Source of the DNA: a virus
Lineage: Duplodnaviria; Caudoviricetes
DNA: 63,301 nucleotides
Strand: one strand, 5' to 3'
IMG/VR virus record: IMGVR_UViG_3300030372_003811
Location: 1 to 63,301 of that record
Part shown: positions 32,250 through 61,284 of the stretch, piece by piece
How the letters are laid out: each line of letters starts with the position of its first letter
Numbering within the stretch: position 1 is the first letter of the stretch
Translations under genes and position numbers: made by a program
Notes under the pieces: model-generated
What the model saw: the letters and a program-made list of their open reading frames with translations, nothing else
Told to the model about the DNA's origin: nothing
The model's database searches: none

Positions 32250-32390
32250 TATACGTTAATGACCAATTAGTAGGCGTCCATGTTATGCTTCGCGCTTTCC
32301 TCTGTACGTTAGCAATGACCTGAAAGGGTAGCAACCAACGTTGGCCGGTTACCACTGCGTTCTTTGATCAAGATGGTGGTGCCGCGTATA
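32250..32390. ncRNA. Putative multi-stem structured RNA
   Basis: TATACG/CGTATA closing helix, ACCT-GAAA-GGGT, ACGTT/AACGT, ACCAC/GTGGT. Confidence 0.45.
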
Positions 32391-32395
32391 TGATA

Positions 32396-32710
32396 TGTGA
32401 CATTTATGTCACACTCTTTGTTCCACTATAAGAGAAATTTTGACCCCTTTAATTTTTTTTCAGAGTAAAAAAAAATACCGTGGCACAGTGGCACAAAGCC
32501 CTTTTTTGACCTATTAGTGTTGGTATAAGCGAATAGTAGCTGTTCCGCGACGTCCAAATATGGTGGCACAGCTTGGCACAAATGGCGTCTTTATTGAATA
32601 GTAGACGATTCTGCCGTGGCACAGTCAAATAAGCATTGGTTTTACTAGCTTTTTCAATTTATGTACTCGGCGTGCGCGACCCTTTTTTGTTTTTATAAAA
32701 ACTTTTTTGC
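32396..32710. other. Candidate replication origin (iterons, palindrome, A/T tracts)
   Basis: TGGCACA x5, TGTGACAT-TT-ATGTCACA palindrome, T/A runs; non-coding. Confidence 0.55.
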
Positions 32711-32740
32711 CTAAAATCTCTCCTTATAGTATAAAACCAT

Positions 32741-33800: not shown

Positions 33801-34303
33801 TTTAGTTTTTTTAAAGTTTGTGGTTTTTCATCTTTCAGTGATGATGCTTCTACTGCTGTACCTTCTATAAGGTCTTTGTGATCTTCTAATATTTTTTTCA
33901 TCTTATCTTTTATTTCTTGTTCAGATAAGTTATCTACATTGGCAGACAAGATTAACTTTTGATCCACATACAATCCGCCGGCCTTACCTCTCGCTACCTC
34001 TGCATTGGTTGCTGCACTCCATGCACCTTTAGCTCTGGCGTCGTCTCTAATTTTTGCAAGCTCAGTAATATGTCTTTCAAATGATATACCGTATTTCTCT
34101 TGGACTTCAGCTCTCAACTCTCCTATATACTTAACTACTAATGGAGATATTTTTGGACTTCTTAACTCTGATGCAGCTTGTCTGGGACGTGTTTTATACC
34201 CTGCTTGATATGCTGCTTCAGATGCTGACATTCTGCCTTCGTTATATACTAATAACTCTGCAAACTTTATTTGTCTTTCTGTTAATTTGGCTGGTACTCC
34301 CAT
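33797..34303 (-). CDS. terS: Terminase small subunit
   Basis: LTERQIKFA...SEAAYQAGY...ASEL HTH; ARGKAGGLYVD; ATG start at 34303. Confidence 0.8.
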   Translation of the reverse strand: MGVPAKLTERQIKFAELLVYNEGRMSASEAAYQAGYKTRPRQAASELRSPKISPLVVKYIGELRAEVQEKYGISFERHITELAKIRDDARAKGAWSAATNAEVARGKAGGLYVDQKLILSANVDNLSEQEIKDKMKKILEDHKDLIEGTAVEASSLKDEKPQTLKKLN

Positions 34304-34306
34304 AGA

Positions 34307-34339
34307 TTGACTTATAACGTAATCTGACGTACAAGTCAA
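34307..34339. promoter_or_regulatory. Palindromic overlapping divergent promoters, predicted leaderless mRNAs
   Basis: TTGACT-17-TACAAG (+) and TTGACT-17-TATAAG (-); start codons lie 6-7 nt after each -10. Confidence 0.6.
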
Positions 34340-34341
34340 TT

Positions 34342-34500
34342 GTGAGAGTAATCATAATATTAATACTATTATCTGGCTGTGCAAAGGACTACGATCTTAA
34401 TCCTTTTACTACAGTTATGAGACAAATTTATAAGGCACAGTACGATGAAACCAGAGACAAAACTTTGGCAACTATTAAAGAAAAACACACCCAAAATTAG
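34342..34500 (+). CDS. Small lipoprotein, 52 aa (not in ORF track)
   Basis: MRVIIILILLSGC lipobox. Confidence 0.6.
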   Translation: MRVIIILILLSGCAKDYDLNPFTTVMRQIYKAQYDETRDKTLATIKEKHTQN

Positions 34501-34828
34501 GTGGACTAGACTGGAGTCTTGGAGTTCATTTGGTACTCCAGATCTGTTGGGTTATGCTGATTCTTGTGGTTTTTTTATGGTTGAGCTAAAGATTACAGAC
34601 AACAAAAAAGTAAGGTTTAGTCCTCACCAAATCCTCTTCCATTCCACTATGACAAACCGTAATTTTATTTTGGTCCAACAAAGCCCGAAGGGCTCTCCTC
34701 GGTCCATAAAACTTTATGGAAGCTCATCGATCCTCGGTCTGCTTGAAGACTGCCGAGAAGTCCCAGCTCTGGCTGTGGATGATTGGGACAACATTCAACG
34801 CTTGTTGCTTGCGGATCGTTTAGACTGA
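34445..34828 (+). CDS. PD-(D/E)xK nuclease (VRR-NUC / Holliday junction resolvase-like)
   Basis: MKPETKLW, GTPDLLG, VELK, SPHQ. Confidence 0.8.
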   Translation: MKPETKLWQLLKKNTPKIRWTRLESWSSFGTPDLLGYADSCGFFMVELKITDNKKVRFSPHQILFHSTMTNRNFILVQQSPKGSPRSIKLYGSSSILGLLEDCREVPALAVDDWDNIQRLLLADRLD

Positions 34829-34941
34829 TCGCTTGATCGCTTGCGCTCGCGCGCTTGCCCGCTTGGGCGCTTGATCGCTTGTTCCTTCGCGATTCGCTTG
34901 AGCTCTTTGTAGTATTTGGGATGCTTCCACACGTGAGTCAC
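34795..34941 (-). CDS. Basic 48-aa peptide reading through the GCTTG repeat tract
   Basis: GTG start 4 nt after the GP88 stop; VWKHPKYYKELKRIAK... Confidence 0.45.
   Translation of the reverse strand: MTHVWKHPKYYKELKRIAKEQAIKRPSGQARERKRSSDQSKRSASNKR
34800..34900 (+). repeat. GCTTG repeat tract, mostly 8-nt period
   Basis: GCTTG at 34800, 34807, 34831, 34839, 34853, 34861, 34869, 34877, 34896. Confidence 0.85.
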
Positions 34942-34945
34942 TTCA

Positions 34946-35554
34946 TTAATGCTTGCCGTAACTTACATTGTCAATTGATCGATCCCAACACTGGCGACAG
35001 CTGCCACATTGGCCGCCCTGGTTAGGAGCCGGACAGGACGCCTGGCCCTGCCCGCTTGTCACGGTAGAAGTCCACGGCCAGAATTTCACTGGCCCTTGGT
35101 CTACCATGTGAGAAGACATTCTAATGATTAAATTTTCTGGAACCTCTTCAGGCTTCACCTGCTGTAAGATCGACGCCTCTCGCGTTGGCATCCAGTGCTG
35201 CGTCTCTGGTGTTAATTCGCAAACTTTAAAAATTTTCTTTAAATGATCTAGATCCTGTATGTCTCCGGCGTCATGCCATCTAAAAAATTTCTGTCTTATA
35301 ATCTGCGCAACCATAGCCGCGACCCAGCGTTGATCCTTCAGGCTGTCGAGTCTTACATATTGCGCAGCTTTAATAGCTTTGTATCTTGTGTAGTTACCCT
35401 TCAGGGCGTAACAGCTGGCACAGACAGAGCCTGGAACCTTCCGCAGCTTCGAGCCTGTTTTGCATTCCCAGGCCGGCAGGCTGTAACTCAGGCCTGGCAT
35501 CTTACTTGTCCGGGTTAATGATCCTGTAATTTGTTTTGCTTCTTTTATTTTCAT
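34946..35554 (-). CDS. GP88-family protein (Fe-S / radical SAM-like)
   Basis: SKMPG.SYSLPA..CKTG...SVCASCYA, FRWHDAGD, WMPTRE, C-terminal CPA...CGSCRQCW. Confidence 0.8.
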   Translation of the reverse strand: MKIKEAKQITGSLTRTSKMPGLSYSLPAWECKTGSKLRKVPGSVCASCYALKGNYTRYKAIKAAQYVRLDSLKDQRWVAAMVAQIIRQKFFRWHDAGDIQDLDHLKKIFKVCELTPETQHWMPTREASILQQVKPEEVPENLIIRMSSHMVDQGPVKFWPWTSTVTSGQGQASCPAPNQGGQCGSCRQCWDRSIDNVSYGKH

Positions 35555-35640
35555 AACTTCTCACTCCTTTTAATACTCTTATATAATCCCATACATTTAA
35601 ATGTCAAGAATTTAATTTGCTTGACAGCTTGGGCCCCTCA

Positions 35641-35663
35641 TGTTACCGGGCGGGCCCACCCAG
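35641..35663 (+). repeat. GC-rich dispersed repeat, copy 1
   Basis: TGTTACCGGGCGGGCCCACCCAG. Confidence 0.85.
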
Positions 35664-35723
35664 CTCGAGCGCTTGATCGCTTGCTCTCTTTTAATTTTTT
35701 TTACTTTAGAATCATTCTAAACT

Positions 35724-36007
35724 GGATCAGGTGACAGTATACGCATAAAGCGGCCAGTCATCTGATCCCAGATCCTATATGCATTTTACTTTATCGATCG
35801 ACACATAGGATCAGGGATCAGCAGTCAGTGCCCTATCGCCGTTCGAGATATCTCAACGCGATGAAATACCAGCGATTCACTTCCTGCTACTGATCCCAGA
35901 TCCATTGCAGAGTTTTCTCTCTGGTTTATCAATGGATCAGGGATCAGTTCTGGTGGTGGACGTCTAAGACTTATTATAAGTGAGCCTACCACAACCAGAA
36001 GTTGTCC
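35724..36007. ncRNA. Array of five contiguous hairpins with alternating inverted 14-nt repeats
   Basis: CTGATCCCAGATCC at 35762 and 35890; GGATCAGGGATCAG at 35808 and 35934; unique self-complementary inserts. Confidence 0.75.
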
Positions 36008-36014
36008 CCATTTA

Positions 36015-36200
36015 TTAACTATTTCTAGTTATAAATTCTTCAGTGAGTTTTTCTGCTTCCTCCTCAATCTCACTTTCCATTTTAGAATAATATGGAGAGC
36101 CCTTATCAGGCCCCCAACTTATTATTCCTTGAAAATATTTATTATATAAGTCATCTAAAATATTTTCATATGTTGTTTCTTTAATATATTTTAAATCCAT
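36015..36200 (-). CDS. Early hypothetical acidic protein
   Basis: GGAGG RBS; coupled to 36200..36406. Confidence 0.65.
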   Translation of the reverse strand: MDLKYIKETTYENILDDLYNKYFQGIISWGPDKGSPYYSKMESEIEEEAEKLTEEFITRNS

Positions 36201-36406
36201 TACGCCACCTCCTCTGTTAAGATTAAAGCTGGATTTTCTTGTGCTGGAACAATAAAGAACATTATATTGTCATTGTCCTCTAATAGACTTAAAGCAGACA
36301 GATACTGATTTGCCTCTTTAACTGTATTAGCATATTTCTCAACTCTATACTCGGGTTTCATATTTGAATTTTTAATATGAAATTTTCTTATTATTAAGTA
36401 TATCAT
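36200..36406 (-). CDS. Early hypothetical protein
   Basis: AAAGGAGTGA RBS; own promoter. Confidence 0.7.
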   Translation of the reverse strand: MIYLIIRKFHIKNSNMKPEYRVEKYANTVKEANQYLSALSLLEDNDNIMFFIVPAQENPALILTEEVA

Positions 36407-36431
36407 TTTTCACTCCTTTGTTTATATAGTT

Positions 36432-36460
36432 ACATTAACAGATATTCCCATAGTAGTAAA
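36432..36460 (-). promoter_or_regulatory. Leftward early promoter with a TATGGGA box
   Basis: TTTACT-17-TAATGT with extended TG. Confidence 0.6.
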
Positions 36461-36480
36461 GAGCCAAAATGTCGCAGGCA

Positions 36481-36512
36481 ATATTCCTGTTTACGGGCGG
36501 GCCCACCCCAGA
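36481..36512 (+). repeat. GC-rich dispersed repeat, copy 2
   Basis: ATATTCCTGTTTACGGGCGGGCCCACCCCAGA. Confidence 0.9.
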
Positions 36513-36535
36513 AGAAAAAAAAAATAAAAAAAGAT

Positions 36536-38716: not shown

Positions 38717-38748
38717 ATATTCCTGTTAACGGGCGGGCCCACCCCAGA
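38717..38748 (+). repeat. GC-rich dispersed repeat, copy 3
   Basis: ATATTCCTGTTAACGGGCGGGCCCACCCCAGA; 31/32 identical to copy 2. Confidence 0.9.
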
Positions 38749-38871
38749 GGGGTCCCTAGCGATTTCAACTTAGCCTTGTGAACCGAGGGCCCACCCTCCC
38801 TTTTTGAATAGGGGTCCCAAAACTTTTACCTTTAGGGTTGGATTTAGACATAGACATGCTATAAAATCAAA

Positions 38872-59763: not shown

Positions 59764-61284
59764 ATGACAAGTACAATTAAAGTAGATACAATAAAAGATC
59801 AAGCAAGCACTAATATAGTTAATAAGTGTGGAACAACTATTAATATAGGAGCTCCAGGAGATACAACTAAAGTAGCGGCTAATACAATTAGATCTAATGC
59901 ATTACAAAATGCATGTGGAGGAAATACAATTAGTAAATGTGGAACGGCAGTTACAGTTGGTCAAAGTGGTGATACAGTTTCACTTGCCGCAGGTGCAAGT
60001 CAATCAGGTTTTGGAAGATCAGGTTCTGTTGATTGGGATACAGGTTCCATCAAAACAGGAACATTTACAGCATCTAATGGAAATGGTTATTTTATTGATA
60101 CCTCATCGAATATAGTAACGTGTAATTTAGCAGCTGCAACCGTAGGAGATATTGTTTCTTTAGCAGATTATGCAAGTACGTGGGCTACTTATAATGTAAC
60201 TCTTGTTCCAAATGGAACCGATAAAATTGGGGGTACAAGTGCTAATGCAACATTAGAAACTTCTGGTCAATCGGTTACTTTAGTTTATGTAGATACAACA
60301 CGAGGATGGGTTACAGTATTAGATTCTACGGCAGCTTTAGAAGGGGGTGCATTTATATGTGCAAGTGTCAGTGGGGCGTGTAATACTTTAGTTACAGTCC
60401 AAACAAATTATAAAGTCGCAACATTTTTAAATCCAGGAACCTTTTGTGTTTCTTCAGGTGGTGGTGGCAAAGCAAATGTAGATTATATGGTCATCGCCGG
60501 CGGTGGTGGTGGCGGTGGAGGAATTGGTGGTGGAGGAGCTGCAGGAGGTTATAGAGAATCTCATACTGTTCCTGTTTCAGGTCCTTATACTGCAAGTCCA
60601 TTGGCTGCAGCTTGTGGAGCTATACCCTTATCACCTGGTCCTTACGCAGTAGTAGTAGGAAGTGGTGGAGCTGGTACAGGAAGTCCTGGTGTTTCATTTC
60701 AACCAGATATTCCCGGTGTACCTGTTTCAACACAAGGAGGATTATCAAGTTTTTCAACAATAACTTCAGCAGGTGGAGGCTATGGCCGACACTATGGAAG
60801 TCAACCGAGTCCAACTTTAGGAGGTCCTGGTGGATCTGGTGGAGGAGGATCAGGTAATGTTGGCGGAAATGGTGGACCAGGAAATCAACCTCCTGTAAGT
60901 CCCCCTCAAGGTAATGATGGTGGAAATGGAAATCCTGCCAATCCGTGGGGTTCTGGTGGTGGTGGAGGAGCCGCAAGCGCAGGTAGTAATTGGGGCCCAG
61001 GTGGTTCAGGAAATGGTGGAGGTGCAACACCAACAGAAATTACTAATGCCGCAGTTGGAAGAGCCGGTGGTGGCGGTGGTGGTGGAAGTGGTTATGGATA
61101 TCCATCCGGTGGTAGTGGTGGAACTGGTGGTGGAACTGGTGGTCCAGGATCAAATTCAACAGGCGCAACTACAGGAACCGCAAATACTGGCGGGGGCGGT
61201 GGTGGTGGCCAACAATGTAGTGTTCAAAGAGGTGGTGCTAATGGAGGATCTGGCATAGTTGTAATAAGATATAAATTTCAATAG
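59764..61284 (+). CDS. Glycine-rich tail fibre/adhesin 2
   Basis: Paralog; ends GGSGIVVIRYKFQ. Confidence 0.8.
   Translation: MTSTIKVDTIKDQASTNIVNKCGTTINIGAPGDTTKVAANTIRSNALQNACGGNTISKCGTAVTVGQSGDTVSLAAGASQSGFGRSGSVDWDTGSIKTGTFTASNGNGYFIDTSSNIVTCNLAAATVGDIVSLADYASTWATYNVTLVPNGTDKIGGTSANATLETSGQSVTLVYVDTTRGWVTVLDSTAALEGGAFICASVSGACNTLVTVQTNYKVATFLNPGTFCVSSGGGGKANVDYMVIAGGGGGGGGIGGGGAAGGYRESHTVPVSGPYTASPLAAACGAIPLSPGPYAVVVGSGGAGTGSPGVSFQPDIPGVPVSTQGGLSSFSTITSAGGGYGRHYGSQPSPTLGGPGGSGGGGSGNVGGNGGPGNQPPVSPPQGNDGGNGNPANPWGSGGGGGAASAGSNWGPGGSGNGGGATPTEITNAAVGRAGGGGGGGSGYGYPSGGSGGTGGGTGGPGSNSTGATTGTANTGGGGGGGQQCSVQRGGANGGSGIVVIRYKFQ

Follow-up and report, generated by a model that had tools for sequence, protein, structure and literature searches.

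Genomic context of the array

The window, by which we mean the whole stretch of DNA analysed, is an entire virus record of 63,301 bp that is rated 100% complete. Its large terminase shares 75% identity with that of Pelagibacter phage HTVC027P and 62% with that of HTVC023P. Almost all genes are oriented rightward, including those for three 2OG-Fe(II) oxygenases, a peptidase M15, a SAM decarboxylase, an AEP primase, a UvrD helicase, a family A DNA polymerase and a peptide deformylase, followed by TerL and the structural genes. This order is broken at 33.8–36.4 kb by a short leftward module, which comprises two small ORFs of 68 and 61 aa (orf68 and orf61, 36406–36015, minus strand), a hairpin region, the GP88 gene (35554–34946, minus strand) and a small-terminase-like gene (TerS, 34339–33797). 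HTVC027P and phage 023Pt_psg01 are annotated with this same gene order, and orf61 homologues precede the hairpins in the related loci L127, L138, L163 and L206. The G+C content is 42–46% in the module (window positions 34000–36000) versus ~33% elsewhere (about 30–39% across most of the genome). In HTVC027P, the same leftward module contains gp30 (locus L205, 4906–5082), which the HTVC027P paper annotates as an ArfA ribosome-rescue factor; no ArfA match was found among the small ORFs of the window.

Between the orf61 stop codon (36017–36015) and the GP88 promoter lies the array, ~170 nt before the start of GP88 and 1.4 kb from TerS; its minus strand is the sense strand of GP88. The neighbouring ORFs are GP88, the TerS-like gene, a nuclease-like ORF and the two small ORFs. 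A preliminary description of this DNA correctly placed the array upstream of GP88 but put it beyond the end of a leftward early operon, whereas it sits inside that operon; the gap between the stop codon and the first G of the array (36007–36010) is 7 nt rather than the 8 nt given there.

GP88 and its promoter region

GP88 (PF17338; Pfam E = 3.5e-29) is the conserved neighbour downstream of the array, and its family comprises 2,624 representative clusters at E ≤ 0.001. The AlphaFold model (pLDDT 96.2) predicts a partial barrel, whose best structural neighbours are radical SAM enzymes, namely spore photoproduct lyase (Z 6.2), three QueE structures (Z 5.6–5.9) and viperin (Z 5.3), all with Z < 8. 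Six cysteines never vary (C45, C48, C174, C183, C186 and C189, the last four C-terminal), and with the nearly invariant C31 the first two give a C31-x13-C45-x2-C48 arrangement. A Foldseek search of the fold against the PDB returned nothing at E ≤ 0.001, and a profile search against PDB sequences returned nothing relevant. Although suggestive only, these features raise the prospect that GP88 may represent an unrecognised Fe–S/SAM enzyme family. We found no literature on PF17338, and a link between GP88 and the hairpins is putative, drawn from adjacency alone.

A sigma-70-like GP88 promoter can be read from the sequence at 35580–35607 on the minus strand (TTGACA at 35607–35602, a 16-nt spacer and TATATA at 35585–35580). 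It is conserved in loci L125–L138 and absent from the output of an automatic promoter scan; the promoter region is common to 14–18 of 113 other regions. Upstream of the promoter, a conserved GGGTGGGCCCGCCC box with CAAGCG repeats (35646–35690, minus strand) is kept in 16–18 of 113 relatives, as judged by blastn coverage. Between the last hairpin and the promoter region lies a perfect 8+1+8 palindrome, TTTAGAAT-N-ATTCTAAA (TTTAGAATNATTCTAAA; 35705–35721, inverted repeat I24), which is shared with L138, precedes an A-rich tract on the sense strand and is a possible operator.

Other short repeats occur around these elements. The near-palindromic box GGGTGGGCCC(GCCC) has seven matches in the window versus 0.64 expected, with copies of GGGTGGGCCC in minus orientation at 35652–35661, 36499–36508, 38735–38744 and 38787–38796. 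An element of ~35 nt around this box is repeated at 36480–36514 and 38719–38751, adjoining promoters, and is conserved in relatives; the box is likely a regulator binding site. Just downstream of GP88, a tandem array of the 8-mer CAAGCGNN occupies 34826–34881 with ~7 copies, and one more pair is found at 35670–35683, upstream of the promoter. A 48-aa ORF at 34795–34941 is probably spurious. In relatives, (GCGA)n or CAAGCTT repeats abut the −35 element TTGACA.

Architecture of the hairpin array

Allowing up to two mismatches, the 14-mer GGATCAGGGATCAG matches the window four times (35762 and 35890 on the minus strand, 35808 and 35934 on the plus strand) versus 0.23 expected, a number reached in none of 100 shuffles; the repeats are thus where the preliminary description had placed them. 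The four 14-mers form the two arms of two hairpins belonging to one family. These arms are 90–95% complementary and contain the double-stranded DNA palindromes GATC and CCTGG. As had also been proposed, the stems continue into the inserts (inverted repeats I1, I2, I4, I5 and I9), and the inserts are unrelated to each other; none of them had a blastn match in 113 other upstream regions.

The 301-nt segment at 35715–36015 folds with a z-score of −7.35 on the minus strand and −7.17 on the plus strand, and none of 100 shuffles folded as well. Its minimum free energy (MFE) fold on the minus strand consists of five consecutive stem-loops with no linkers, the number of hairpins originally described; only two of them are members of the family. 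Family hairpin 1 (35889–35948, minus strand), identified in a structure-only search of the whole window, forms its full stem in the MFE fold, and its arms correspond to inverted repeat I2. Its sense strand reads A-CUGAUCC-CUG-AUCCAUUG ... CAAUGGAU-CUG-GGAUCAG-U, with a U.U mismatch at the opposed CUG triplets. Family hairpin 2 (35761–35822, minus strand), found in the same search and as inverted repeat I1, has the outer frame and U.U mismatch of hairpin 1 and an unrelated insert.

The other three stem-loops lie outside the family. In the MFE fold, the outer 7 bp of hairpin 2 are displaced by an alternative stem, GGAUCAGAUGAC...GUCACCUGAUCC (35724–35768, minus strand; inverted repeat I9), which is built with an extra half-repeat at 35724–35730, overlaps the 3' arm of hairpin 2 and competes with its base. 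A unique stem-loop (35823–35888, minus strand) is placed by the MFE fold between the two family hairpins and showed no blastn similarity in the 113 other upstream regions. The fold also contains a pre-hairpin, UUCUGGUUGUGG...CCACCACCAGAA (35949–35999, minus strand), which abuts hairpin 1 and is preceded by a conserved GGGGACAAC at 36001–36010; its counterparts covary in loci L125, L126 and L127, where they follow the same AATGGGACAAC lead. The proposal that 7-nt half-repeats pair independently is not supported by the comparative data, in which the conserved unit uses the whole arm. The related idea that the fold could alternate between five short stems and two long ones is feasible in the window, only because two units of the same frame adjoin there, but such a switch is not conserved and many relatives have a single unit.

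Distribution and turnover in related phages

At least 595 relatives of GP88 are present in IMG/VR. Many of the best 80 GP88 loci carry CTGATCC ... GGATCAG pairs upstream of GP88 and in its sense, with one to three units per locus. Scanning IMG/VR with the 14-mer alone yielded 120 stretches, 60 of them with full units; GP88 was present in 51 of these 60, at 47–87% identity to the window protein, and the other nine were cut by contig ends. In all 51 GP88-bearing loci the units were located on the upstream side of the gene. The frame and its U.U mismatch are kept down to ~47–52% GP88 identity. Copy number ranges from zero to six, with six units within 1 kb in contig L059 and one unit each in phages 023Pt_psg01 and HTVC027P. 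Of 114 distinct upstream regions, 38, 43, 30 and 3 contain 0, 1, 2 and 3 copies of the CTGATC-frame pattern, respectively, a count in which the 50–60% identity bands are biased by 14-mer ascertainment. The last unit in these regions ends 60–1302 nt before GP88.

The element is confined to this locus. In five of five whole records, the CTGATCCCWG 10-mer was found here only, and reversed-pattern controls gave no matches; the structure search of the whole window returned the two minus-strand units and one stray match at 60663–60732 (plus strand). Within the locus, turnover is extensive: the 145 distinct units from all loci fall into 131 unrelated insert clusters, of which 121 are singletons, and 105 of the 145 use the CTGATCC frame. 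Four of the ten multi-member insert clusters appear in two or more frames, to which they are joined at the conserved CTG. Loci L125 and L127, whose GP88 proteins are 96% and 93% identical to that of the window, nevertheless carry other hairpins and other intervening modules between the same flanks, which indicates that inserts are replaced and not merely drifting. The preliminary description had suggested looking among relatives for constant repeats with inserts that vary in number and identity, and this is the pattern that we observed. A second hairpin frame, (A/G)TTATTTG-CTG-GAC...GTC-CTG-CTAATAAT with two T.T mismatches, was seen in L127, L136, L141, L201 and L205, and a second-frame insert is also present in the CTGATCC frame.

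A search of 596 Gb of bacterial genomes with the pattern CTGATCCCTG-N35-65-CTGGGATCAG gave 38 loci, about the chance number by our own estimate. Of these, 33 have 0–2 extra stem pairs and are chance matches, while the remaining five are short marine contigs with real hairpins. GP88 is carried by three of the five, and we take these contigs to be phage fragments in MAGs or SAGs. No Pelagibacter record was among the titles of the 38 matches. Distant GP88 phages (HTVC033P, the end region of roseophage CRP-4, and Caulobacter phage Seuss) contained no unit, and GP88 alone thus does not imply hairpins. The whole IMG/VR contigs L008, L059, L063, L007, L072 and L005 end ~50–280 nt from their hairpins, which fits assembly breaks at a hypervariable repeat, with real DNA ends as the alternative.

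Covariation and strand specificity of the unit

On the sense strand, each unit consists of an outer stem of 8–9 bp, a CUG opposite a CUG with its U.U mismatch, an inner stem of at least 4–5 bp and a variable top, which together give a continuous helix of 17–23 bp when G.U and U.U are counted. The outer stem is usually (A/G/C)CUGAUCC / GGAUCAG(U); the variants CUUGAGCC, AUUAUUUG, CUAGUUU, CUAAUUC and CUGAUCU each have a matching 3' strand. In an alignment of 26 units of 59–80 nt, 95.9% of cells form pairs versus 82.5% in shuffles, and 8 of 13 stem pairs change on both sides. The alignment contains 44 compensatory cells versus 10.8 in shuffles, a value that none of 500 shuffles reached, and sliding the partners by 1–3 columns left at most 12. 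Covariation, a line of evidence that the preliminary description had called for, therefore backs the structure. Invariant positions are C9-G74, U10, U73, G11-C72 and C14-G69. The tops showed no common loop motif, although some apical motifs recur in different frames, and neither a U-tract after the stems nor a promoter inside the unit was found. A further helix ends within 3 nt of the 5' base in 95 of 141 units versus 106 of 258 controls. Unit lengths have no period of three (49/40/56), and the region is accordingly non-coding; a 55-aa ORF at 35825–35992, which is not conserved, was rejected as coding.

To examine strand preference, we used 63 distinct loci picked by GP88 similarity alone and a structure-only search that required no fewer than seven of the eight outer pairs, two opposed CTG triplets and five inner pairs. 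The sense strand upstream of GP88 contained 47 units in 33 of the 63 loci, versus none on the antisense strand and none in five rounds of shuffling, while GP88 with 1.2 kb downstream, used as a control, contained a single unit in the 63 loci. In 18 more units, from 15 loci, the U.U is replaced by a Watson-Crick pair. The remaining 15 loci of this unbiased sample lack units of either version or contain hairpins of other types, which indicates that the element is dispensable.

Under a wobble-blind definition, we obtained 104 distinct units, of which 88 have T.T at the mismatch and none has A.A. The isolated mismatches of this set comprise 44 G.T versus five A.C (14 versus none in an earlier subset). 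Transitions from Watson-Crick pairs should yield G.T and A.C equally, so the G.T excess points to selection for pairing on one strand, namely the one in sense with the flanking genes. Strand specificity on the transcribed sense strand fits RNA. This part of the original structured-RNA reading thus gains weight, while the ssDNA cassette offered there as an alternative is weakened by the 44:5 ratio. We infer that the active form is RNA rather than ssDNA.

Observations on transcription come from relatives. The HTVC027P unit (L205, 2750–2801) lies ~65 nt downstream of a TTGACA-17-TATATA promoter. According to the HTVC027P infection transcriptome study, gp33 (the GP88 homologue) and gp34 form a separate cluster that is highly expressed at 6–9 hpi, and this phage group is described there as having no RNA polymerase of its own (PMC12753301); the genes neighbouring the hairpins are therefore transcribed in a cultured relative. 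In three metatranscriptome runs of one study, small shares were covered by contigs of relatives, for which DNA carry-over is possible. An RNA-library contig of 1,246 nt from a relative spans GP88 and part of the array and, being a contig, is uninformative on transcription, strand and ends; gaps in such coverage carry no meaning.

Other structured modules and the candidate origin

Several further structured elements accompany the hairpins or lie nearby. The Flavobacterium-1 RNA (RF02976) occurs in the window at 32263–32385 (plus strand, 68.6 bits) and in HTVC027P at L205 2977–3097 (90.2 bits), in the latter case further down the leftward non-coding leader of the hairpin and in the same sense; this Rfam motif is thus carried by pelagiphages. 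We found no literature on it. A module of ~130 nt (starting TCATTAATGACTGTG...) follows the hairpin in L127 (about 1500–1700), L205 (2802–2930) and L198. Its copies differ in a compensatory manner (GTTAAC/GTTAAC versus GTTGAC/GTCAAC, for instance), and we regard it as a candidate structured RNA, one to which no Rfam family corresponds. Another module of ~100 nt (GGGAAATAGTGTAGG...CACAATCACCTA) is common to L128 and L129, where family hairpins flank it on both sides. Separately, a non-coding stretch of ~490 nt (window 32400–32740) contains four copies of GTGGCACA (32480, 32488, 32563 and 32616, all on the plus strand) and long A/T runs. The count of GTGGCACA is weak on its own, as 3 of 100 shuffles reach four, and all four copies are clustered; the stretch is a candidate origin or regulatory region.

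Database searches and rejected identities

Rfam 15 identified only Flavobacterium-1 in the whole window. For the array at E ≤ 10, the best Rfam hit was a miRNA-precursor model with 24.6 bits versus a gathering score of 59.2, and among nine related loci the only match was Flavobacterium-1 in L205. A blastn search of 35500–36500 against 50,697 phage records gave no match, and no tRNA or tmRNA was detected in the window. The Pfam scan of ~40 ORFs revealed no phage RNase or RNA-binding protein, and neither the neighbouring ORFs nor ~30 further ones contained a recombinase, HUH or transposase domain. Compared with the rest of the phage genome, the inserts gave only chance-level matches of 10–17 nt (best 13/13 or 16/17, E = 0.23). 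Cutting at the stem base, and the guide, decoy or antitoxin-mimic roles suggested in the preliminary description, are speculative. The hairpins are undescribed in the pelagiphage literature that we searched; the main texts of PMC9599517 and bioRxiv 10.1101/2019.12.14.876532 are silent on hairpins, repeats, noncoding elements and promoters.

We considered several known element types and rejected them. A CRISPR array is inconsistent with repeats that are complementary hairpin arms in alternating orientation and with the lack of a Cas domain in the scanned ORFs. The view that the array fits neither CRISPR nor TIGR architecture nor any known family is thus upheld by the arm arrangement and the Rfam result. 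No U-tract follows any stem, as an intrinsic terminator would require, and a MITE is contradicted by the single locus and the absence of a target-site duplication. For a type III toxin–antitoxin (ToxI-like) array, Tandem Repeats Finder found no tandem array at 35724–36007, and the neighbours contain no endoribonuclease toxin domain.

Proposed role and alternative explanations

The hairpins exist and are conserved, covarying, strand-specific and confined to a single locus, with turnover of both copy number and inserts. They constitute a previously undescribed family of structured elements, in which a constant lower stem carries highly diverse tops at one non-coding spot. We regard the array as a local cluster of a lineage-specific family of putative RNA hairpins in HTVC023P/HTVC027P-type pelagiphages. 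We propose that the hairpins act in the leftward early/middle transcript as processing or stability punctuation and as joints for cassette exchange, a reading to which we give slightly less than even odds (a probability of roughly 0.45). In this model, host RNA polymerase would read the leftward operon through the small ORFs, the hairpin region, GP88 and the small terminase gene. The lower helix of about two turns would offer a double-strand-specific RNA enzyme a site for recognition and for cleavage or protection; the obvious candidate, by analogy with T7, is host RNase III. The helix would thereby punctuate and stabilise a long untranslated, fully structured stretch, which in relatives also carries other structured modules, such as Flavobacterium-1 RNA in HTVC027P. 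Furthermore, the shared frames could act as joints for swapping inserts and neighbouring modules between co-infecting phages, as PeSLs (promoter-early stem-loops) do in T4-type phages, with tops drawn from a very large pool while the frame stays constant. That the stems are cut or bound, and by which enzyme, we infer. Some observations sit less well with the punctuation and exchange model: G.T tolerance and T.T mismatches would also fit a hairpin formed by this strand as ssDNA, the Pfam-scanned ORFs include neither an RNase nor an RNA-binding protein of the phage, the 15 loci without a unit mark the element as dispensable, and a simple processing or stability role does not need such extreme insert diversity. 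In addition, the conserved U.U is not known to play a role in RNase III recognition.

An element acting at the DNA level is unlikely, though the least so of the alternatives. Here, ssDNA or cruciform hairpins would be sites for a recombinase or nuclease that takes up and shuffles short cassettes in an integron-like way, or would mark replication or packaging near the small terminase. The single locus, fixed orientation, strand-specific hairpins, conserved mismatch, variable copy number and huge insert pool would all suit such sites, as would frame and insert exchange exactly at the conserved CTG, and the arms hold GATC and CCTGG palindromes within the same operon as TerS, 1.4 kb away. Nevertheless, the domain scans found no recombinase, HUH or transposase, the G.T to A.C ratio exceeds the expectation for DNA hairpins, and a cruciform needs both strands. 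The units also run in the sense of transcription, downstream of promoters, and the iteron-like, AT-rich non-coding region at 32.4–32.7 kb is a better origin candidate. The contigs that end near hairpins could be counted in its favour, although breaks are expected at any hypervariable repeat. Alternatively, and with distinctly low likelihood, the tops themselves could carry specificity, as decoys or sponges for a host factor or as antisense or kissing-loop determinants in co-infection, with the frame as scaffold or processing handle. A conserved frame bearing extremely diverse inserts (131 clusters in 145 hairpins), the replacement rather than drift of inserts between close relatives and the recurrence of some apical motifs in different frames would be expected of such a system; the lack of a common loop motif, of significant complementarity elsewhere in the phage genome (best E = 0.23) and of hairpin copies in bacterial genomes other than phage fragments would not. 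Quite improbable, in our view, is a version in which the constant frame (outer stem plus CUG/CUG U.U) is the processing and exchange handle of a small-RNA cassette system and each top is released as a small RNA with its own target or partner; such tops could serve as decoys, regulate by antisense pairing or decide how co-infecting relatives compete.

A cis-acting role in transcription, in which adjacent stem-loops of the nascent RNA would alter the host RNA polymerase by put-like antitermination or keep Rho from loading along a long untranslated stretch, is a long shot. It accords with units downstream of host-type promoters in a phage group that has no RNA polymerase of its own (PMC12753301), with the second helix abutting the 5' side of 95 of 141 units and with hairpins set back to back without linkers, but it is difficult to reconcile with copy numbers of 0–6, distances of 60–1302 nt to GP88, unconstrained tops and a GP88 gene that has its own promoter downstream of the array. 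Least of all do we favour the idea that the hairpins have no function of their own and are selfish or neutral palindromes in a dispensable intergenic hot spot, which is highly improbable. While units are missing from a quarter to a third of relatives and their content is highly variable, the frame and U.U are kept to ~47–52% GP88 identity, compensatory changes and strand asymmetry reveal selection on one strand, and the units have never dispersed to other loci.

These phages are relatives of the most abundant SAR11 phages of the ocean, and all early genes of HTVC027P are of unassigned function (PMC12753301). For the pelagiphage group, a conserved, covarying and strand-specific RNA element with a constant frame and highly diverse tops would be without precedent among described RNA features acting in cis or in trans, and the hairpins provide a handle for studying early gene expression in SAR11 infection. 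The array also marks a hot spot of recombination, which is a probable cause of breaks in metagenome assemblies. If the small-RNA cassette system were real, the most abundant pelagiphage lineage would gain a rapidly reshuffled RNA repertoire at one locus.

Comparison with known systems

The PeSLs of T4-type phages are described as short conserved stem-loop motifs in a hyperplastic region that act as exchange points between unrelated sequences (PMC4122927; see also PMC2839356). Our units resemble them as conserved stem-loops at which close relatives exchange sequence, a property reported for PeSLs in PMC4122927. In contrast to PeSLs, which are composite terminator/promoter elements flanking ORFs in several regions, the unit lacks both a promoter and a U-tract, carries no ORF as cargo and is found at one locus. 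On these grounds, with non-coding cargo in particular, we rejected the identity.

Integron attC sites are found at one locus in fixed orientation and form hairpins that are specific to one strand, have conserved ends and an unpaired position, and vary in the centre; their end consensus differs from CTGATCC/GGATCAG. The strand-specific hairpin, conserved ends, unpaired position, variable centre and single locus are present here as a resemblance only. Like attC arrays, the units lie beside a conserved gene in fixed orientation, with a dyad-symmetric variable centre, variable number and a huge pool. Unlike them, they have no IntI-type recombinase or integrase domain in the neighbouring ORFs and no gene cassettes between sites, belong to a lytic phage and yield evidence that points to RNA, and an attC array was rejected. 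REP/BIME elements, which are thought to stabilise upstream mRNA, occur in hundreds of dispersed copies with the whole sequence conserved and with a RAYT transposase. Our array shares with them clustered hairpin repeats of alternating orientation after stop codons; it differs in its one locus, variable interior and lack of a transposase. This identity was also rejected, as the motif was restricted to the GP88-upstream locus in all five whole records.

The RNase III hairpins of T7 and T3 are intercistronic elements of early and late polycistronic mRNAs, including an operon read by host RNA polymerase, and share a conserved stem, about two turns long and interrupted by a non-Watson-Crick position, beneath tops that differ. 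T7 sites lie between coding cistrons, with their number and positions fixed, whereas our units are stacked in a non-coding stretch in 0–6 copies with hypervariable tops, and the likeness is structural, with no sequence similarity to T7/T3 RNase III sites. It extends to the intercistronic position, the operon read by host polymerase, and multiple copies of a stem of about two turns with an interruption and differing tops. A phage RNase III site calls for an intercistronic hairpin of ~20 bp or more on the transcribed strand, and in keeping with this the units lie on the sense strand between orf61 and GP88, with a continuous helix of 17–23 bp when G.U and U.U are counted.
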